Source: a virus
Taxonomy: Duplodnaviria > Heunggongvirae > Uroviricota > Caudoviricetes
DNA: 10,296 nt
Virus record (IMG/VR): IMGVR_UViG_2548876863_000020
Location: 1-10,296 of that record
Direction: 5' to 3' (one strand)
This document shows, one piece after another, positions 1 through 9,300 of the stretch; the stretch's first letter is position 1, and every line of letters begins with the position of its first letter. A program made the position numbers and the translations under genes. The notes beneath the pieces are model-generated. The model made no database searches and was not told the DNA's origin. It saw only the letters and a program-made list of their open reading frames with translations.

Positions 1-201
1 TTACCCATTGGCGCGGCTTAAGAGCTTATTTTTGAATTCACAATGGTCACGATATAACCATCTTGCTCGCCCGTGGATAACTTTGGCTTTAGGCAGGTCT
101 CCGGACTTAATCCGGTCATAGATGAAGGTTTTACCGAAGCCAGTATCAGCCATGATGAATTTCAAATCAACCAGTGAATCAGGCTGTAGTTCGTGTTGCA
201 T
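1..201 (-). CDS. Excisionase-like / AlpA-family small DNA-binding protein (66 aa)
   Basis: Complete ORF, ATG at 201..199 with GGAGA 8 nt upstream, stop at window base 1. Motif IMADTGFGKTFIYDRIKSGDLPKAKVIHGRARW matches the winged-helix AlpA/Xis pattern (TG..K.TIY..I..G.FP..K.G.R..W). Sits at the distal end of the leftward operon where lambdoid phages carry xis next to int. Confidence 0.6.
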   Translation of the reverse strand: MQHELQPDSLVDLKFIMADTGFGKTFIYDRIKSGDLPKAKVIHGRARWLYRDHCEFKNKLLSRANG

Positions 202-1527: not shown

Positions 1528-1822
1528 GGTTAACCTCCTGCGGAGTAGCCTTTACAAGCACTGGTGCAAATCCATCTTCATTAAGGTTATGAATATAGAC
1601 TTCTGTTCTCCTGCGCTCTTCAACGTTTAATATTGTTTCTGGATCATAAACCCATACTTTCATTCGACTATTCCATGAAGAAATCGCTTCAGATCTAGTT
1701 CGTTTTTCTGGTCCTTGGGCACCACATTTGCATGACACATAGCGCATTTTCCCTCTGATACTGAATGAGTATCCGATGTTAAGCACAGTGGAACCACAGA
1801 ATGGGCAGCGATATAGATTCAT
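1520..1822 (-). CDS. Zinc-ribbon protein, Lar-like restriction-alleviation family candidate (100 aa)
   Basis: ATG 1822..1820 with AGGTGG upstream and ATGA overlap with the upstream gene. N-terminal CPFCG...CKCG four-cysteine ribbon is the motif I associate with the Lar family; the C-terminal 50 aa is an unrecognised extension. Confidence 0.45.
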   Translation of the reverse strand: MNLYRCPFCGSTVLNIGYSFSIRGKMRYVSCKCGAQGPEKRTRSEAISSWNSRMKVWVYDPETILNVEERRRTEVYIHNLNEDGFAPVLVKATPQEVNRG

Positions 1823-2520
1823 AAATCATCCACCTTAGGCGCAGCTGAGACAGCAACATTCCAGAACTCAGAAAACATATTGTATGCACCAGATAGATTG
1901 GAAGTGGCATACCCTCCAAGCTCACTTCTAATCTGAACGGCTCTCATCATTTCCGGTGTTAACTCCTTCGGCACCATAACCCAACCATCCGGAGTTACCG
2001 GAGAGTTGCCATCCAGCGCGTTCAACTTGTAAGCCTGGCTTACAGGTTCGGCTTCCAGTTCTGCTATGCGCTTCTCTGATGCTTCAAGTAACGCCTGCTT
2101 ATCGCGTAGCGCTTCTTCCAGTTCAGCAACATGGCACTCACTATCAATAAGGTTGTTCTCTGCGGCTTCCAGCTCAACACGCAGCTTCCCTACCGTTAGC
2201 GCAATATCCTCGTTCTCCTGATCACGGTTTTTGATGTATTGCTGGTTTCTTTCCCGTTCATCCAGCAGTGCCAGCACGGTAGCCGGATTGGCTGCAGCGA
2301 TGAATTCAGCATTGGCCTGCTGTTCCATTTGGAAATCTTCATCGAAACCGCTTTCAGGATGCGCTCCTTCAATTCTGCAAATAGGAATATATCCAGCAAC
2401 TTCACGATGAATTAGCGCATCATCACCATCAAATCGGCTTTCTCCATATTCGAGCGACCACTCACCACACGTTGCTTTTTCTGCCGCTTCACGCAGTGCC
2501 TGATAGTTAATTTTGGTCAT
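1819..2520 (-). CDS. Ead/Ea22-like family protein (233 aa), tentative
   Basis: ATG 2520..2518 with GGGTGA upstream. N-terminal INYQALREAAEKAT and internal LLDERERNQQYIKNRDQENEDIALTVGKLRVELE coiled coil resemble lambda Ea22-like proteins as recalled. Confidence 0.5.
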   Translation of the reverse strand: MTKINYQALREAAEKATCGEWSLEYGESRFDGDDALIHREVAGYIPICRIEGAHPESGFDEDFQMEQQANAEFIAAANPATVLALLDERERNQQYIKNRDQENEDIALTVGKLRVELEAAENNLIDSECHVAELEEALRDKQALLEASEKRIAELEAEPVSQAYKLNALDGNSPVTPDGWVMVPKELTPEMMRAVQIRSELGGYATSNLSGAYNMFSEFWNVAVSAAPKVDDL

Positions 2521-2521
2521 A

Positions 2522-2821
2522 TCACATCACCCTGAAGCCGTTGCATTTACGTAAGAAATCGCAGATATAGCCCTTCATTTTTTCATGCCAATCTCGATCA
2601 TTCCCATTGCACCAACCATCAGGTGGAGTCCAGTTTTCTATCAGAGCAGCCATTTTCTTTGCTTTCGCCGGAGTAGCTGTTGCGGTATCGCAGTAATGAC
2701 GAGTGTCAACCAACGCATCCATACCATCGATATCAAGTACGCAAAACCATGTGTGATTCGGCATTTCAACAGATGGTATTTGTTGCCCACGTCGACGTTT
2801 ATCAATAAGACATACAGTCAC
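2522..2821 (-). CDS. Hypothetical Cys/His-rich protein (99 aa)
   Basis: ORF-track frame 2522..2854; start refined to GTG 2821..2819 because AAAGGAGG lies 6 nt upstream and it forms a GTGA overlap with the stop of the 210-aa gene. Confidence 0.55.
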   Translation of the reverse strand: MTVCLIDKRRRGQQIPSVEMPNHTWFCVLDIDGMDALVDTRHYCDTATATPAKAKKMAALIENWTPPDGWCNGNDRDWHEKMKGYICDFLRKCNGFRVM

Positions 2822-3450
2822 TGGTTGCCTCCTTTGCGAAGCTGTTCCGCCCATTCTTCAAGGGATTTCTCCGCATATTCACCAGACAGGCCATCAATCG
2901 GACGCGGTTCATTAGCCAACTCTTCTTTTGCTGACAAAATCATGCGTGTAACGTCGAAAACTTCACGCAAAGACTTATTGATAAATCCGTGATTGAACGC
3001 AGCAGCAAGACGGCTGGCGGCATAGTTAATCCCCTCGTTGCGTGCTTCCGCACGTACTTCAGCAAGGAAAGCGTCGGTGGCTGGGGTATTTTCCATTAGT
3101 TTTTTTGACGTTGACCAAAGCGCGGAAAGCCACTCTTTATCAAACCATTTATCCTTATGGTGAAACATTTCATCAACTGTCTGGTGGCAGCGGGATACCT
3201 CAAAAAGGCACCGCGCATTCTCCGCCGCCAGCGCTGAAAACTTCTCGTGTGCCAACTTAACAGCCGAATCAGCCTGCTTAATTGACTCAATCGCTCTCTG
3301 TTGGTCTTCGGACAGAGCCGAAATCTTGGCCTCCGCTTCAGCAAATTTACGCACCAGATATTCAGCGTTTGTTTCGTTAACCTTTAAATCTCGTGGAATG
3401 CATTTACCTTTCAGAAAACCATCCATCTCAATTAGTGTCATTTGTTTCAT
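2818..3450 (-). CDS. Hypothetical protein (about 210 aa), predicted helical/coiled-coil
   Basis: ORF-track frame 2818..3468 (GTG); ATG 3450..3448 preferred, with GGAG about 10 nt upstream. No family recognised. Confidence 0.6.
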
Positions 3451-3607
3451 TTTTTTCCACTCCGCCACATCGCATTCAGATATTTGTTGTCATTAACAGA
3501 ACCGAAACTCTTTCTCTTAAGCAATTCCTCTCTCGATGGCATTGGTTTTACGCGTTGGCGAATAATCATTTCTGCCGGAAGAATGCCGGGATTGTATGCA
3601 AGTCCTC

Positions 3608-3889
3608 TCATGATTTACTCTCCATGAACTGGTCAACAGCCATGCTAAGTGATACACCTAACGTCTCGATATGCTGCTGAATATCCTGTAGCGTCTGCGC
3701 CTGAGATAACAGGATTTCACGGTTGCATAACTCTTTAACCAGATGCTCAAACTTGCTGTAATAACCGATACGACTGAGCGTTTCTTTCCCTGCATTCTCG
3801 CCTTCTTTGATAATTCCTCTTTCGCTAAGAATCAGGTCGTGTTTGGTTCCGGTAATAACGTATTTTCCGAGGTCGATGTTTAGCTTCAT
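3608..3889 (-). CDS. Hypothetical protein (93 aa)
   Basis: ORF-track frame, ATG 3889..3887, same strand and tight spacing with neighbours; weak RBS. No family recognised. Confidence 0.55.
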
Positions 3890-3905
3890 TGTTAATTATT
3901 CCATG

Positions 3906-4220
3906 TTAATTTATTCGTATGCCTGCTCTTTCTTCATCGAGTTTTTTTAGCTTGTATCGCATAGCCCTTACTGAATAAATTGAGCGGCAGGTTGCAATTG
4001 CTATTTCTTCTGCGGAGAACTTACCGAAAAGTGATACTTCGGCTCTTGTCCAGCGTCTTCCACGAAGTCGGCTAACAATGTCAGCTCCAATCCTTGTTGC
4101 TTTCGCCATTACTGCTTTTTCAGTCCTTTCCAGTTTTTCAGCGATAACTTCAACTGGCATTGTTGCCGCTACTTCGCACAAGAAATCGACTTCCCATTTC
4201 TCCCATGGAGTCTTTTTCAT
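3906..4220 (-). CDS. Hypothetical protein (104 aa) with an internal tandem repeat, possible DNA-binding
   Basis: Two roughly 40-aa halves share a W..EV..F...S/P.EEIA...R pattern (PWEKWEVDFLCEV...VEVIAEKLERTEKAV versus RRWTRAEVSLFGKFSAEEIAIATCRSIYSV). Confidence 0.55.
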   Translation of the reverse strand: MKKTPWEKWEVDFLCEVAATMPVEVIAEKLERTEKAVMAKATRIGADIVSRLRGRRWTRAEVSLFGKFSAEEIAIATCRSIYSVRAMRYKLKKLDEERAGIRIN

Positions 4221-4231
4221 AGTCGATACCG

Positions 4232-4720
4232 TTATTTGATAAGAAGTGAAGGTTTCCCAACTTTGAGTTGAGCGCCGGGGATATTTATTCCTGCTTTTAG
4301 TTGGTGTTTGATTGCCAGTTTGTCGGCTTTAATTGTCGTTTCAAACTCAACGTATTCAGGAGGAAGGGCGCTTGAGTCGATGATTTCTACAGTTTCTGAC
4401 GGTTTGCGGATTGTTACTTGGTGAATACCTGCTCGAATCTTTTTCTTGCCAACCATTTCAAGCGATGACGCTATATACGCCATAATGCTGTCAATCTTAT
4501 TTTGAATTACTGCGGCTCGTTCATTCAGTGACTTTGCCTCGTCCTTGAGGCGTTCAGCATAACCAGATTCATTTTTAATAATGGCGAGAAGTTGCTCTAT
4601 TTTATCGGTAAATTCTCCTTCCATTCCTTCTATTGTGTCAGCAATCATCTCTGGCTCTAAATCTGAATCCATCAATTTTGCGTATTCATTGGCTATTTCA
4701 TATAGTTTGCTCACTGGCAA
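4232..4720 (-). CDS. Coiled-coil recombination-associated protein, possibly Sipho_Gp157-like (162 aa)
   Basis: ATG 4720..4718 with GGAGG 6 nt upstream; overlaps the recT 3' end by 23 nt. Size, predicted coiled coil and position next to recT fit Gp157-family proteins; assignment is from memory only. Confidence 0.4.
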   Translation of the reverse strand: MPVSKLYEIANEYAKLMDSDLEPEMIADTIEGMEGEFTDKIEQLLAIIKNESGYAERLKDEAKSLNERAAVIQNKIDSIMAYIASSLEMVGKKKIRAGIHQVTIRKPSETVEIIDSSALPPEYVEFETTIKADKLAIKHQLKAGINIPGAQLKVGKPSLLIK

Positions 4721-5600
4721 CCTCCAGTTTCGCTTTGCATTCTATGTAAATGGCTTGTACGTTCTGCTGCAATTTCATTCCAGATGTCAGGCGATATGCT
4801 TCTGCAAAATATCGCTTCAAATCATCCATGTTTTCTGCCTGAGCCATTTCATCACAAAGAAGTTGTGCTTTTTCCATTATTTCCTGCTGGCGTTTCCGTT
4901 CATCTTCGCGGATATCTTCCTCTGATTTGTGCGGCATAACTGGTTCCTGATGCATACCTTCATCTTCGTTAAGCAGGTGAATGGCATTATCCAGTCGCTG
5001 GGCTTTAGGCCAGTATTTGCTGGCGCGTTTAACTATGGTTTTACGCGCCATCTCTTCCCAGAATGTCTTCCACGGTCCATTCTTTGCCTTGCTCGTTGCT
5101 TCCACAGCTTTAATTTCTGCCAGACTCATTTCTTCAGTCAGGTAGTCACCATCTGCTGTTTTAACCGTGCAATAACCTCCAACAATAGAGCCTCGCTCAC
5201 CAAATGCGTTGTATTTGTGGGTTGGTGCTGAATCAAGGCCATTTGATTCATAGGTGTCGTTTGAGTACACCAGTTTGCATTGCCCCCACTTAATTGATCC
5301 TGTCGATTGCGCAAGATGAAGTAATCCCATGTAACTGATATCAAGGCACACCATGCCGTCGCGAGGAACCAGATAAGCAAGTTTGCTGGCCGGGTTTAAG
5401 GTGATGCCGATCGCCGCAACATTGATGATGGCGTTCTGTGCGCTGGTTGGATTTGCCAGTGCTGTTTTAGCCAGGTAATCGTTTTTCTGGAAATACTGAA
5501 TTGCAAACTGGCTTTCCTTAGCCCATGTCACCGTCTGTTCAGTCAATGCTCCGCAGAATAACTGCTCTTGCTGTTTAACGAATTCAACGATATTGCTCAT
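4698..5600 (-). CDS. recT: RecT-family single-strand annealing recombinase (300 aa)
   Basis: ATG 5600..5598 with GGAGA 6 nt upstream. Conserved segment NGPWKTFWEEMARKTIVKRASKYWP matches the RecT signature (compare Rac RecT NGPWVTHWEEMAKKTAIRRLFKYLP, recalled). Confidence 0.85.
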   Translation of the reverse strand: MSNIVEFVKQQEQLFCGALTEQTVTWAKESQFAIQYFQKNDYLAKTALANPTSAQNAIINVAAIGITLNPASKLAYLVPRDGMVCLDISYMGLLHLAQSTGSIKWGQCKLVYSNDTYESNGLDSAPTHKYNAFGERGSIVGGYCTVKTADGDYLTEEMSLAEIKAVEATSKAKNGPWKTFWEEMARKTIVKRASKYWPKAQRLDNAIHLLNEDEGMHQEPVMPHKSEEDIREDERKRQQEIMEKAQLLCDEMAQAENMDDLKRYFAEAYRLTSGMKLQQNVQAIYIECKAKLEVASEQTI

Positions 5601-5908
5601 GCAGCTTCTCCATAAATATGTCTGCGTTTGAATATTGCGAAGGCATATTCAGCCTTAACTCTTTCGGTTATTGCATCCCAGAACCATTCAGCGGCTTTTT
5701 CCTGATAGTTACAGTCATCATCTTCCAGCCAGTCGATAGCGTCCTTAGTGTGTTCATCTGGTTTATATGAGCGAAGCATTTCGCTTATTGGGTCGCAACG
5801 TTTGCAGAGGCGATCAACTTCACTGTTGATTCGCTCGTAATCTTCATCAGTAAAACTTGCGATTATTTGCGATATTTCACGCTTATCATTCAGAGTCAGA
5901 ATCATCAT
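5597..5908 (-). CDS. Hypothetical acidic protein (103 aa), immediately upstream of and coupled to recT
   Basis: ATG 5908..5906 with AGGAG upstream; ATGA overlap with the recT start. Occupies the slot that Gam/Abc-type RecBCD inhibitors take in lambda/P22; function inferred from position only. Confidence 0.6.
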   Translation of the reverse strand: MMILTLNDKREISQIIASFTDEDYERINSEVDRLCKRCDPISEMLRSYKPDEHTKDAIDWLEDDDCNYQEKAAEWFWDAITERVKAEYAFAIFKRRHIYGEAA

Positions 5909-6384: not shown

Positions 6385-7008
6385 CTATGCGGCTTCGGAA
6401 GGAAGTCCAATCATCTTATTCAAATCTTCTACCCGTAAAGCAGGAAGTGCTGTACTTGCTTTATCTGCTTCTTTTGGTAGCAATTCTTTGCTTTCAGGCC
6501 AAACTTCAATAAGTCGCTTAACTGTTGTGACTGAGTTCAAAGCAGCCCATACATTTGATTCGATATCCTTTTTCAAGGCTTCAAGGTTTTGTTGCAATGC
6601 GCAGATTTCATCAAACCTTTTTGTTATTTCGTGTTCTGCGTCAAACATGCATTTATCTTTAGTCGGAGTAGGGAGCAATATATCTTCTCCGTTGCCGTCT
6701 TTCCCATATGAATGCCATCCAACCCTTCTGCCAGATACAGTCAGATAAATCGAAGTAGAACGAACATCGCATGAGTAAAATGAACATCCCAGCTTTTCAA
6801 GTTCTTCACTTATAGCTACTAACTTGGATGATAACTGATCCACTTCCTCAGTTTTATTTTTACCGCCAAACGCAATAACTCTGGCGTCAAGTGCAAGCTG
6901 GTTCTTTAACTTTGTTACTTCTTCAAGTTCAGTGAAAACCCCAGACTTAATTAAAGCGTTACGAGCGATTTTCTCTTTCATTCTCGTAGTTAAGCGGATT
7001 GATGACAT
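6385..7008 (-). CDS. Hypothetical protein (207 aa)
   Basis: ORF-track frame 6385..7023 (TTG); ATG 7008..7006 preferred, with GAGAGGT upstream. Lies between ral-like and cIII-like. No family recognised. Confidence 0.65.
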   Translation of the reverse strand: MSSIRLTTRMKEKIARNALIKSGVFTELEEVTKLKNQLALDARVIAFGGKNKTEEVDQLSSKLVAISEELEKLGCSFYSCDVRSTSIYLTVSGRRVGWHSYGKDGNGEDILLPTPTKDKCMFDAEHEITKRFDEICALQQNLEALKKDIESNVWAALNSVTTVKRLIEVWPESKELLPKEADKASTALPALRVEDLNKMIGLPSEAA

Positions 7009-7021
7009 ATTAATACCTCTC

Positions 7022-7054
7022 AAATAAGAAAATAAAGGCCACCATCAGGCAGCC
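7022..7054 (-). terminator. Putative intrinsic terminator (minus strand) after ral-like gene
   Basis: Minus-strand RNA GGCUGCC-UGAU-GGUGGCC (7 bp including two G-U pairs) followed by UUUAUUUUCUUAUUU; the ral-like stop TGA is in the loop. Confidence 0.45.
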
Positions 7055-7245
7055 TTGTTGTTCTGTTTACCAAGTTCTCTGGCAATCATTGCCGTAGTTC
7101 GTATTGCCCATTTATCGACATATTTCCCATCCTCCATTACAGGAAGCATTTCTTCAGGCTTAACCATGCATTCCGATTGCAGCTTGCATCCATTGCATCG
7201 CTTGAATTGTCCACACCATTGATTTTTATCAATAGTCGTAGTCAT
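7045..7245 (-). CDS. ral: Ral-like restriction-alleviation protein (66 aa), cysteine-rich
   Basis: ATG 7245..7243. Sequence MTTTIDKNQWCGQFKRCNGCKLQSEC... matches my recollection of lambda Ral closely, and it lies downstream of N in the pL operon as ral does in lambda. Not verified by search. Confidence 0.5.
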   Translation of the reverse strand: MTTTIDKNQWCGQFKRCNGCKLQSECMVKPEEMLPVMEDGKYVDKWAIRTTAMIARELGKQNNKAA

Positions 7246-8197: not shown

Positions 8198-8566
8198 TTA
8201 GTCAGCGAAGGTTAAGACGAGAATTACCTTAATGATGTCTGCTACAACAGACACGGCCATAGATAAACCAAAGACGATCCAAGCCATAGAGATGTCTTCA
8301 CTACCATCGTATAGAGTTCCGTAATCACTGGTGTAAGGCGTAAATGTCGCGCCTTGATACAACAGGTATAAGCTTGAACCATAGAGGATAAATGCAGATA
8401 TCCCTTGTATTGCTATGATCACTAGAATCATGAAACGAGCTGATCTATGCGCCCAAGCCTGGCTTATTTTTTCTGATAGAGATTTCGCAATAAAAGCATG
8501 CGCTAAGCCGTAAATTGTCGAGATTGCCAACATCCCAAAAAAGCTTGCTATAGCGGTTCCAACCAT
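8198..8566 (-). CDS. Small integral membrane protein (about 122 aa, three predicted TM helices) co-transcribed downstream of cI
   Basis: ORF-track frame 8198..8587 (TTG overlapping the cI stop); ATG 8566..8564 with AAGGGG upstream is the more likely start. Three hydrophobic stretches of roughly 25 residues each. No terminator between it and cI. Confidence 0.65.
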   Translation of the reverse strand: MVGTAIASFFGMLAISTIYGLAHAFIAKSLSEKISQAWAHRSARFMILVIIAIQGISAFILYGSSLYLLYQGATFTPYTSDYGTLYDGSEDISMAWIVFGLSMAVSVVADIIKVILVLTFAD

Positions 8567-8583
8567 AAGCGCCCCTTGCGTGA

Positions 8584-9300
8584 TCAAACCAGCCTTAGTT
8601 TTGTCTCAATTGCAACGCCTATAATCTTGCAGTTTCCATTGATTGGCACGAGAGGCCATGCAGGGTTAAGTCCCTTGAGGTATTTATTTCCGCCGTCGAT
8701 TATCAGCTTCTTGAATGTTGCTTCGTTAGAGTCAGAAAGTTTTGCTATGACCAAGCTGCCGTTGATCGCCTCCCTTCCGGTATCGAAAAGAACGAATGTT
8801 CCCTCTGGAATGCTTAACCCAACCGGTGCCGTCATTGAATCACCTTCCACTTTAAGCCAGAACGCATTACCTTGAATATGCGCGTCAGACTCAAGCCAAA
8901 CATCTATGTCTTTAATGGTGTATGGTTCGCATGCTTCACACCACGAGCCAGCCTGGATACTGCTTAACACCGGATACCTCTTTCCTGCTCTGTATTCCCC
9001 TGCATACCTTACGTTGGCATCGCTCTTAAGGCTTTCTGCCTGTTCTGCAACCTTGGCAGCAATTGACTGGCTAAAATCAGCAATTGAGACTTGCAACAGT
9101 CGTGCAAAACCAGATGCAACCTCAACGTTTAGCGCGTTTCTGCCATTAAGATAATGCCCTACCGCTCCTTGGGTGATACCCAGTTCATCAGCGATTGAGT
9201 ATTGGGTTATTCCCAATTCTTTCTTTTTTGACTCATACAAAGCCTTAAGCCGCTTAGCGTCTTCGAGCTGTTCTGTCGTCAGTGATTTTTTATTTTCCAT
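8584..9300 (-). CDS. cI: CI-type prophage repressor (238 aa), HTH plus S24 autopeptidase domain
   Basis: Strong resemblance to lambda CI as recalled (LTTEQLEDAKRLKALYESKKKELG...). Ala-Gly cleavage site in IQAGSW, catalytic Ser in EGDSMTAP, Lys in TFKKLI. Divergent from cro with operators between them. Confidence 0.95.
   Translation of the reverse strand: MENKKSLTTEQLEDAKRLKALYESKKKELGITQYSIADELGITQGAVGHYLNGRNALNVEVASGFARLLQVSIADFSQSIAAKVAEQAESLKSDANVRYAGEYRAGKRYPVLSSIQAGSWCEACEPYTIKDIDVWLESDAHIQGNAFWLKVEGDSMTAPVGLSIPEGTFVLFDTGREAINGSLVIAKLSDSNEATFKKLIIDGGNKYLKGLNPAWPLVPINGNCKIIGVAIETKLRLV

Follow-up and report, generated by a model that had tools for sequence, protein, structure and literature searches.

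The stretch between positions 2522 and 4220 of the window (the whole 10,296-nucleotide DNA analysed here) is best read as a mosaic of 'ea' or exo-xis accessory genes transcribed from pL: five single-gene cassettes that are exchangeable independently of one another, with one of them, the gene for a 104-aa helix-turn-helix (HTH) protein, tied to the neighbouring recombination module. We hold this reading with a probability of about three in four. The source is a lambdoid, lambda/P22-like E. coli prophage, and all five genes fall into phage gene families that are already on record, the same genes having been published under DUF names.

Results

Five genes within a longer packed operon

ORF reading and PGAP annotation agree on five small minus-strand early genes in this stretch (Table 1). 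Four of them, with reading frames of 99, 210, 93 and 104 aa, had been listed in an earlier, sequence-only reading of this DNA and are confirmed by both approaches; the fifth, of 54 aa, had been overlooked. For an E. coli prophage that is 100% identical, PGAP makes the same gene calls, including the starts of the 99-aa and 210-aa genes. The former starts at a GTG, with an alternative 110-aa reading from an upstream ATG at 2854, and most of its homologues are 99 aa long; the latter starts at an ATG, with an alternative 216-aa reading from a GTG at 3468. The same genes occur at 94-99% identity in the published phages HK140, Sf6, mEpX1 and Gally.

Table 1. Genes and junctions of the block and its immediate surroundings (positions in the window).
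Feature	Position	Strand	Basis or remark
RecT (recombination module, context)	4698-5600	-	Pfam RecT, E 2.6e-33
Sipho_Gp157/Mu-Gam-like protein (recombination module, context)	4232-4714	-	Pfam Sipho_Gp157, E 1.5e-36
Recombination module RecT + Gp157	4232-5600	-	Context of the 104-aa gene
104-aa tandem two-repeat HTH protein (predicted)	3906-4220	-	ORF and PGAP call; promoter-proximal gene of the block
93-aa DUF5405 protein (Sf6 gp24 / P2 Orf83 family)	3608-3889	-	Pfam PF17399 and phrog_154
ATGA start/stop overlap	3608-3611	-	93-aa gene stop and 54-aa gene start; direct sequence reading
54-aa basic DUF2737 protein (P22 Orf56 / HK97 gp38 / Sf6 gp23 family)	3447-3611	-	Pfam PF10930 and PGAP call
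ATGA start/stop overlap	3447-3450	-	54-aa gene stop and 210-aa gene start; direct sequence reading
210-aa EaE-family protein (P22 EaE / HK97 gp37 family)	2818-3450	-	Homology to P22 EaE, and phrog_614
GTGA start/stop overlap	2818-2821	-	210-aa gene stop and 99-aa gene start, preceded by AAGGAGG; direct sequence reading, confirming the earlier claim
99-aa DUF7739 protein (Sf6 gp22 / HK620-CUS-3 HkaH family)	2522-2821	-	Pfam PF24881 and phrog_1239
Ead/Ea22-like gene	1819-2520	-	Pfam Ead_Ea22, E 2.7e-35; 38% identity to lambda Ea22

The accessory position in the pL operon that the sequence-only reading had assigned to the block is borne out, the block lying between the recombination module and the Ead/Ea22-Lar-xis genes of a lambdoid prophage, in the order xis ... 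Lar, Ead/Ea22, five-gene block, Gp157, RecT ... Ral, N, cI, cro, cII. Tight coupling is no hallmark of the block: the packing spans p103/RecT through Lar/ASCH, all junctions from RecT to ASCH being overlaps or gaps of 1-16 nt. At the distal end of the block the Ead/Ea22-like gene starts 1 nt downstream of the DUF7739 gene, and the same tightly packed operon goes on. No terminator- or promoter-like site was found on the coding (minus) strand from about 6190 to 905, and an Rfam search of the window gave no match. We propose that pL would drive a single transcription unit comprising the five genes, chained by ATGA and GTGA overlaps, and the genes around them.

Families of the four distal genes

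The sequence-only reading had assigned none of the genes to a family. This does not hold: DUF7739, DUF5405, DUF2737 and EaE-family assignments can be made, and PHROG profiles match all of these. An NCBIfam search returned nothing useful, and a PDB sequence search with four of the block proteins nothing below E 0.05.

The 93-aa protein matches Pfam PF17399 (DUF5405; 25.5 bits, cut-off 21.6) and phrog_154 (E 5e-31), and 160 phage records contain the family, P2-like, P22-like and N4-like phages among them. Its AlphaFold2 model (pLDDT 91.7) comprises four strands and a helical hairpin and yields 19 structure matches in BFVD at E < 1e-3, none of them with a characterised function; the best are DUF5405 proteins (TM 0.76-0.86). 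One BFVD match bears the label 'replication initiation protein'. PHROG applies this label to DUF5405 as well; we found no sequence basis for it, and it probably spread from P2 orf83, which adjoins gene A.

The 54-aa protein matches Pfam PF10930 (DUF2737) at 100.4 bits (cut-off 25, E 5e-29) and is 72% identical to P22 Orf56. The 210-aa protein shares 44% identity with P22 EaE in its C-terminal 86 aa (E 4e-22) and, over its full length, 50% with phage Gally EaE; identity to HK140 gp36 is 38%. It matches phrog_614 (E 6e-90), and separate PHROGs cover its N- and C-terminal parts. The earlier reading had predicted this protein to be helical, with which weak matches of coiled-coil type agree; the longer N-terminal half is probably a coiled coil.

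The 99-aa protein matches Pfam PF24881 (DUF7739) at 74.1 bits (cut-off 27, E 1.4e-20; residues 13-104 of the 110-aa reading), a domain also present in its homologues, and phrog_1239 (E 4e-55), with relatives in 21 phage records. Its earlier description as Cys/His-rich is true of its composition (6 Cys, 3 His); of the cysteines only C93 is invariant in 19 homologues, across which no conserved metal-binding motif was found. A zinc-finger or metal-binding reading of this protein was rejected on the grounds that five of the six cysteines are not conserved.

The genes assort one by one

The sequence-only reading had suggested that the coupled genes make up a multi-component unit, in a region that in lambdoid phages typically carries anti-defence or host-takeover functions; the products would then cooperate in a single system of that kind. 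In its favour, three junctions of the block are start/stop overlaps and counter-defence genes are known from such regions, with Ral and Lar lying within the same operon; accessory regions have been described as enriched in counter-defence genes (bioRxiv 10.1101/2023.04.06.535777). A single system would have its genes travel together, and this is not what we see. We took 65 viral contigs with the 104-aa gene as anchor: 33 of them carry DUF5405, 36 an EaE-like gene (median identity 44%) and 13 DUF7739; these three variable genes occur in all eight combinations of presence and absence. The most constant member is DUF2737, found at all 65 loci, and all four downstream genes occur together on only 3 of the 65 contigs. 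When anchored on DUF7739 instead, 80 contigs hold the 104-aa gene in 15 cases, DUF5405 in 11 and the EaE-like gene in 43. Of 5,426 complete E. coli genomes, just one covers at least 80% of the block; no phage record does. With the genes assorting independently and the full set this rare, the claim of a multi-component unit fails.

Other observations point in the same direction. Overlaps of the same type are the usual junction throughout this operon, also for genes with assigned families, and join unrelated neighbours, for example RecT, Lar and ASCH; DUF5405 is found on its own in P2-like, N4-like and other phages; and the PADLOC defence models gave no match at E <= 0.1 with the five proteins and their neighbours. 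We therefore regard cooperation within one such system as very improbable. Peptides of the block proteins did not occur in the supplementary files of two screens of phage accessory genes, and a search of a paper library under the three DUF names gave one passing mention of DUF2737.

Under the preferred reading of exchangeable cassettes, the DUF5405, DUF2737, EaE-family and DUF7739 products would be small soluble proteins with a putative host-directed role, each probably acting by itself against a target in the host or in a competitor; that they act alone we infer solely from their independent inheritance. An anti-defence or host-takeover role is conceivable at most for individual genes, and the constant DUF2737 gene could cooperate with whatever lies upstream of it.

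The 104-aa gene and its relatives follow recombination modules of many kinds

The promoter-proximal gene belongs to the recombination module and is inherited with RecT-Gp157. It lies directly downstream of Gp157 at 80 of 80 and 78 of 78 loci. These anchored samples are large, but with 94-100% identity to the query they reflect recent common descent. The association extends to more distant relatives (46-63% identity) and is seen in every informative case at 60 further viral and 9 genomic loci. These relatives directly follow lambda Gam-Bet-Exo, RecT plus Exo-like and RecT plus YqaJ modules, and also ERF with a small ORF, DUF3799 with a 189-aa protein, and Gam with a 167-aa protein and YqaJ. Taken together, the gene or a relative stands immediately 3' of the last recombination gene at all of the roughly 200 informative loci, behind at least six module types. 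Alternatively, the linkage could be purely positional and without function, as for a gene that is kept at one junction of an operon with conserved gene order.

Tandem helix-turn-helix repeats

The sequence-only reading had noted an internal tandem repeat in the 104-aa protein, and hhalign of the two halves and the AlphaFold2 model, with its two bundles, confirm it. With the family profile, half 1 aligns to half 2 over 40 columns at E 1.6e-4, and 152-aa relatives bear a third repeat (repeat 2 against repeat 3, E 3.9e-11). BLASTP with the separate halves gave no match, the repeat being visible only with family profiles. The model (pLDDT 78) consists of two three-helix bundles with a low-confidence linker between them, and 9 of 12 family members match Pfam Sigma70_r4_2 (best E 1.4e-7). 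Against the PDB, every top Foldseek match of the model is a bipartite HTH DNA binder, though at E >= 0.1, and we take this search as a qualitative 'bipartite HTH' signal and no more; the weakness of the whole-chain matches is explained by the mutual orientation of the two bundles, which is not fixed. As judged from profiles and model, the protein is thus built of two tandem HTH repeats of the Myb/GcrA-N-terminal type (sigma-70 region 4-like). It most likely binds DNA, and would most likely have an accessory or regulatory part in the early programme of recombination and DNA metabolism.

A counterpart of P22 Abc1?

In P22, the slot behind erf holds the HTH protein Abc1, together with Abc2; here it is occupied by the double-HTH protein. 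Both proteins measure about 100 aa, contain two HTH units, the second of them Myb/sigma-70-r4-like, and are encoded directly downstream of a recombinase module. Abc1 (94 aa) itself matches Sigma70_r4_2 (27 bits) and, weakly, Myb_DNA-binding. The 104-aa protein could accordingly be a functional Abc1 counterpart, that is, a recombination accessory that neutralises or redirects host RecBCD or protects DNA ends, in concert with the Gam-like Gp157. Besides slot, size and build, three observations are in favour of this: the gene family follows at least six kinds of recombination module; the gene and Abc2 exclude each other in one slot (15 and 44 of 80 loci, respectively, none with both); and the family profile aligns marginally with the second HTH unit of Abc1 (E 4.8e-4 over 40 columns, 32% probability). 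The copy in phage Gally has also been annotated as Abc1-like by its authors.

However, BLASTP detects no similarity between the 104-aa protein and Abc1, and hhalign of the pair reaches E 8.8e-4 with a probability of only 23%, leaving the two comparisons at 23-32%. Unlike P22 Abc1, the 104-aa gene has no adjacent Abc2 (PF11043), of which none exists in the window, and a homology search of the 104-aa protein against Abc2 found none. Moreover, nuclease inhibition is not what one would readily expect of an HTH protein, and the activity of Abc1 is itself poorly defined, the protein having been called a poorly characterised HTH protein beside abc2 (bioRxiv 10.1101/2023.04.06.535777). We consider such a role unlikely. 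For the label 'Anti-RecBCD protein 1', under which the gene circulates, we found no sequence support.

Possible GcrA-type repeats, and methyltransferases beside relatives

The repeat unit, W-x3-E ... (I/V)A-x3-R(S/T)-x3-V, is homologous to the HTH of phage MissC gp39 (family profile in hhalign: probability 97%, E 1.3e-10). MissC gp39 passes the thresholds of Pfam Myb_DNA-bind_6 and of Pfam GcrA, the latter over positions 2-52 of PF07750, the N-terminal HTH part (31.7 bits, cut-off 26.9). GcrA consists of an N-terminal HTH, a long linker and a C-terminal sigma-70-binding domain, the HTH conferring methylation-dependent DNA binding (PMC4647560). In the three-repeat subfamily, whose members resemble R1R2R3 Myb arrays, the next gene usually encodes a DNA methyltransferase (Dam family at about half of 51 loci, N6_N4_Mtase at others), with the stop of the HTH gene overlapping the methyltransferase start at the genomic loci, and in HK639 a one-repeat ORF immediately precedes a methyltransferase gene.

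These observations would fit a GcrA-like, methylation-sensitive regulator that reads host Dam sites or, in relatives, the sites of the adjacent phage methyltransferase, and so tunes early phage or host transcription. On the other hand, none of 12 family members matches Pfam GcrA directly, the window contains no methyltransferase, and adjacency to one may be mere gene order. GcrA has a single HTH, as opposed to tandem repeats, and the chain of the 104-aa protein stops behind its second bundle, at residue 104, and lacks the sigma-70-binding domain that takes GcrA to promoters. We judge this regulator role to be decidedly doubtful.

Discussion

For the most part, this block is of little import: mosaic and dispensable accessory genes of the early-left operon, of which it is a typical example, occur in every P22-like or lambda-like phage. 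What our analysis contributes is a corrected record, with five genes, assigned families and no conserved metal site, and one modest comparative-genomic lead: only the 104-aa gene is mildly noteworthy. A double-HTH gene that always stands behind a recombination module, whatever its type, offers a concrete and cheap hypothesis on the role of an Abc1-like gene. More speculatively, its family may represent unrecognised small tandem Myb/GcrA-type HTH proteins that are a conserved, required accessory of phage recombination modules, possibly as directors or licensers that read methylation or DNA ends, and that form a distant, broader version of P22 Abc1. In such a scenario, which we think improbable, members of the family would sit at the 3' end of non-homologous modules of at least six types, the three-repeat form being coupled to a phage adenine methyltransferase.

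The closest known counterpart of the block as a whole is the 'ea' region of P22 (erf-abc1-abc2-orf56-eaE-...-eaD...), with which it shares operon position and gene order. The recombination module differs, being Erf in P22 and RecT-Gp157 here, and P22 EaE is about 45 aa shorter than its homologue in the block. Further counterparts are genes 21-25 of Sf6, whose gp22, gp23 and gp24 are homologues at 94-95% identity, the hka genes of HK620 and CUS-3, and gp37 and gp38 of HK97; exchange of one gene at a time is common to all of these regions and the block. In lambda and the Stx phages, the same slot, from the recombination genes to xis, is filled by the exo-xis region (orf60a, orf63, orf61, orf73, ea22, ea8.5), which is likewise transcribed early from pL. 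Its genes are dispensable, of largely unknown function, and affect the decision between lysis and lysogeny (PMC3824215, PMC8614690). The five block proteins gave no BLASTP or tblastn match better than E ~0.06 to lambda orf60a, orf61, orf63 or ea8.5; it is the neighbouring Ead gene that has its homologue there, in lambda Ea22.

Gene content and layout of the early region

The window corresponds to the early region of an E. coli lambdoid prophage. All four ORFs that a sequence-only reading had placed in the flagged block are present at their positions, but a fifth gene had been overlooked, a 54-aa ORF between the 93-aa and 210-aa genes, recognised by PGAP, by Pfam and by homology to P22 Orf56. 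The block comprises five early genes that share one orientation, are closely packed and have no terminator-like site in between. Three 4-base start/stop overlaps are seen in the sequence (ATGA at 3611-3608, ATGA at 3450-3447 and GTGA at 2821-2818, the last already proposed from the sequence), and gaps of 11, 16 and 1 nt separate Gp157 from the 104-aa gene, the 104-aa from the 93-aa gene and the 99-aa gene from Ead, respectively. PGAP starts agree (GTG for the 99-aa and ATG for the 210-aa gene), and the 99-aa protein has the same length as most of its homologues. Tight packing is not peculiar to the block: overlaps likewise occur at RecT/Gp157, Ead/Lar and Lar/ASCH. On the coding strand from about 6190 to 905 no terminator-like or promoter-like site was detected, and Rfam gave no match.

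Features of the window, from the promoter end of the minus-strand series
Feature	Position	Strand	Remark
cro, cII		+	
cI	8584-9300	-	promoter end of the minus-strand series
129-aa predicted membrane protein, phrog_6534	8198-8587	-	directly downstream of cI
N-like protein		-	between the 129-aa protein and Ral
Ral	7045-7245	-	98% identical to lambda Ral
Nmad5 (PGAP name)	6385-7023	-	207/212 aa; between Ral and the 103-aa protein
103-aa protein, phrog_3486	5597-5908	-	precedes RecT, ATGA overlap
RecT	4698-5600	-	
Sipho_Gp157/Mu-Gam-like protein (Gp157)	4232-4714	-	
104-aa protein	3906-4220	-	block
93-aa protein, DUF5405	3608-3889	-	block
54-aa protein, DUF2737	3447-3611	-	block
210-aa protein, EaE-like	2818-3450	-	block
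99-aa protein, DUF7739	2522-2821	-	block
Ead/Ea22	1819-2520	-	downstream of the block
Lar, PF14354	1520-1822	-	
ASCH protein, then several small ORFs		-	between Lar and xis
xis	1-201	-	

The operon also holds the known anti-restriction genes Lar and Ral, together with the ASCH-domain protein (Lar and ASCH within 1246-1822), and therefore carries counter-defence genes, though not demonstrably in the flagged block. The 129-aa membrane protein, to which the sequence-only reading had also pointed, lies next to cI, a position that suggests a lysogen-expressed gene, for example for superinfection exclusion. The Nmad5 gene, labelled 'Nmad5 family putative nucleotide modification protein' by PGAP in the matching prophage, matches phrog_1965 but no NCBIfam model, and is found in some related contigs only. 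The 103-aa protein has a homologue (52% identity) that also precedes a DUF3799-type module (locus L089); its small gene, too, may be module-linked.

The whole window occurs in none of 5,426 complete E. coli genomes. The best match, in bovine strain OkiPb01684 (NZ_AP042519.1, locus L004), covers 73% of the window at 99.9% identity and includes the flagged stretch at 100% identity; it is a prophage remnant, interrupted by IS66 and IS3, in which Lar and Ead are truncated and the immunity region is replaced. The window represents an intact version of this prophage, one that the 5,426 genomes lack.

The block proteins belong to catalogued families

None of the block proteins had been assigned to a family from the sequence; all five nevertheless belong to catalogued ones, by Pfam, PHROG or BLAST-level homology. 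The 99-aa protein is a DUF7739 member (74 bits; phrog_1239) and equals Sf6 gp22 and HK620/CUS-3 HkaH. It had been described as Cys/His-rich, a feature that is not conserved: C93 alone is invariant in 19 homologues, and a metal site is therefore unlikely. The 210-aa protein belongs to the EaE family, being 50% identical to phage Gally EaE over its whole length, 44% identical to P22 EaE in its C-terminal 86 residues (E 4e-22) and 38% identical to HK140 gp36, itself annotated as similar to HK97 gp37. The basic 54-aa protein is a DUF2737 family protein according to PGAP (Pfam E 5e-29; 72% identity to P22 Orf56), and the 93-aa protein is DUF5405 (phrog_154), equalling Sf6 gp24 and P2 Orf83. The 104-aa protein falls into phrog_11492/phrog_323 and has no Pfam family of its own. 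PDB sequence searches with four of the five proteins gave nothing below E 0.05, and for none of the five did we find a match among PADLOC defence models or among lambda exo-xis proteins. The block genes occur at 94-99% identity in the published phages HK140, Sf6, mEpX1 and Gally, with DUF or PHROG identifiers, and the region is of a textbook type; the block is therefore an already known kind of sequence.

In the confident AlphaFold2 model of DUF5405 (pLDDT 91.7), a helical hairpin follows a sheet of four strands. This fold has no PDB counterpart but matches 19 predicted viral structures (BFVD) at E < 1e-3, including Bacillus, Lactobacillus and Cellulophaga phage proteins; proteins with this fold, some 90-100 aa long, come from these phages, from Providencia phages and from others. 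None of the 19 has a characterised function, and one is labelled 'replication initiation protein'. DUF5405 is a small, phage-specific fold of wide distribution, none of whose members is characterised. We found no basis for the same PHROG label on DUF5405; the label may have spread from the gene's proximity to gene A in P2.

Independent assortment of the block genes

The tight coupling had been taken to indicate a multi-component unit, possibly for anti-defence or host takeover. No phage record spans as much as 80% of 2400-4300, although parts of it occur in 256; among the 5,426 complete genomes, 2,199 carry parts and a single one the whole block. With the 104-aa gene as anchor, we collected 80 viral contigs and scored its neighbours by tblastn. 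Sixty-five of them extend 2.5 kb or more downstream; among these, DUF2737 was present in 65, EaE-like in 36, DUF5405 in 33 and DUF7739 in 13, with all four together in only three; DUF5405, EaE-like and DUF7739 appeared in all eight combinations of presence and absence, and no pair exceeded expectation. Anchoring on DUF7739 instead (80 contigs at 94-99% identity) recovered the 104-aa gene in 15, DUF5405 in 11 and EaE-like in 43. DUF5405 also stands alone in P2-like phages (beside orf82 and gene A), N4-like podophages and a large Morganella myophage. Given the rarity of the full set and this independent assortment, a single multi-component system is highly improbable. The block genes are single-gene cassettes swapped at gene boundaries, independent inheritance being shown for four of the five. 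Such one-gene mosaic exchange is the well-known pattern of the P22 'ea' and lambda exo-xis regions. The genes of these regions have been described as dispensable, with functions that are largely unknown (PMC3824215, PMC8614690).

The DUF2737 gene is the sole invariant member downstream of the recombination module, and Erf-type phages have it too, behind Abc2; its importance may exceed that of the variable genes nearby.

A tandem helix-turn-helix gene behind recombination modules

The order RecT, Gp157, 104-aa gene is kept in 80/80 contigs anchored on the 104-aa gene and in 78/78 anchored on Gp157, while the downstream genes vary. Since the sequences within these samples are near-identical, we added relatives of 46-63% identity (9 genomic and 60 further viral loci). 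In every informative locus among them, the 104-aa gene comes immediately after the final gene of a recombination module, and these modules are of six kinds or more: lambda Gam-Bet-Exo; RecT with a lambda-Exo-like protein; RecT with Gp157; RecT with YqaJ; ERF with a small ORF; and DUF3799 with a 189-aa protein, or Gam with a 167-aa protein and YqaJ. In the DUF7739-anchored contigs, this slot is taken in 44 cases by P22-type Abc2, following Erf, and in 15 by the 104-aa gene, following Gp157; the two never occur together. The 104-aa gene is inherited with the recombination module.

The internal repeat noticed in the 104-aa protein is borne out by family-profile analysis, with the pattern W-x3-E ... 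(I/V)A-x3-R(S/T)-x3-V, and a third repeat is present in some relatives of 151-155 aa. Of 12 family members, nine match Pfam Sigma70_r4_2 (best E 1.4e-7), and others match homeodomain-like HTH_23. In the AlphaFold2 model (pLDDT 78), a floppy linker connects two three-helix bundles, and the model's weak whole-chain Foldseek matches are all bipartite HTH DNA binders (Cbp1, DUX4, Pax6, Myb R2R3, Tc3/Mos1). The protein, which is basic (net charge +7), is a tandem helix-turn-helix protein. Its family profile also matches Streptococcus phage MissC gp39 (E 1.3e-10, 97% probability), which itself scores above the Pfam thresholds for Myb_DNA-bind_6 and for GcrA, in the latter case over the N-terminal HTH part (positions 2-52); the repeats are therefore probably of the Myb/GcrA-N-terminal type. 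GcrA, however, binds sigma-70 through a C-terminal domain (PMC4647560) that the 104-aa protein lacks, and the latter is therefore not a GcrA.

Three-repeat relatives (about 152 aa; loci L088, L092, L095, L096, L097 and L180-L230) are usually followed by a DNA adenine methyltransferase gene. Immediately downstream lies a Dam-family gene (PF05869) in about half of 51 viral loci; several others have an N6_N4_Mtase at that place. The genomic loci examined show a stop/start overlap between the two genes, and in phage HK639 (L268) a one-repeat 55-aa ORF lies just before the methyltransferase. Together with the GcrA-type HTH, these neighbours suggest a link between the family and adenine methylation. 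The window itself holds no methyltransferase, and it is distinctly unlikely that the 104-aa protein reads methylation.

Discussion

We favour, at a probability of roughly 0.75, independent accessory cassettes joined to a module-linked HTH gene. The block genes would be expressed from pL, early in lytic growth; four of the proteins may act singly on host or rival-phage targets, while the 104-aa protein would bind DNA and serve the programme of recombination or early DNA metabolism, a part also presumed for Abc1. The one lead is this tandem-HTH gene, placed invariantly after recombination modules of unrelated types.

The label 'Anti-RecBCD protein 1' on the phage Gally homologue is without sequence support. 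BLASTP finds no similarity between the 104-aa family and P22 Abc1, and profile-profile comparison gives a marginal one (E 4.8e-4), so that the 104-aa protein is at most a putative Abc1 homologue; a RecBCD-related role like that of Abc1, to which architecture and position would point, seems unlikely. In the literature, Abc1 itself figures as an HTH protein that is poorly characterised and sets off a cell-death response encoded by P4 (bioRxiv 10.1101/2023.04.06.535777). The 104-aa protein is Abc1-like in architecture and position: Abc1, with 94 aa and a Sigma70_r4_2/Myb-like HTH, directly follows erf, just as the 104-aa gene follows its module.
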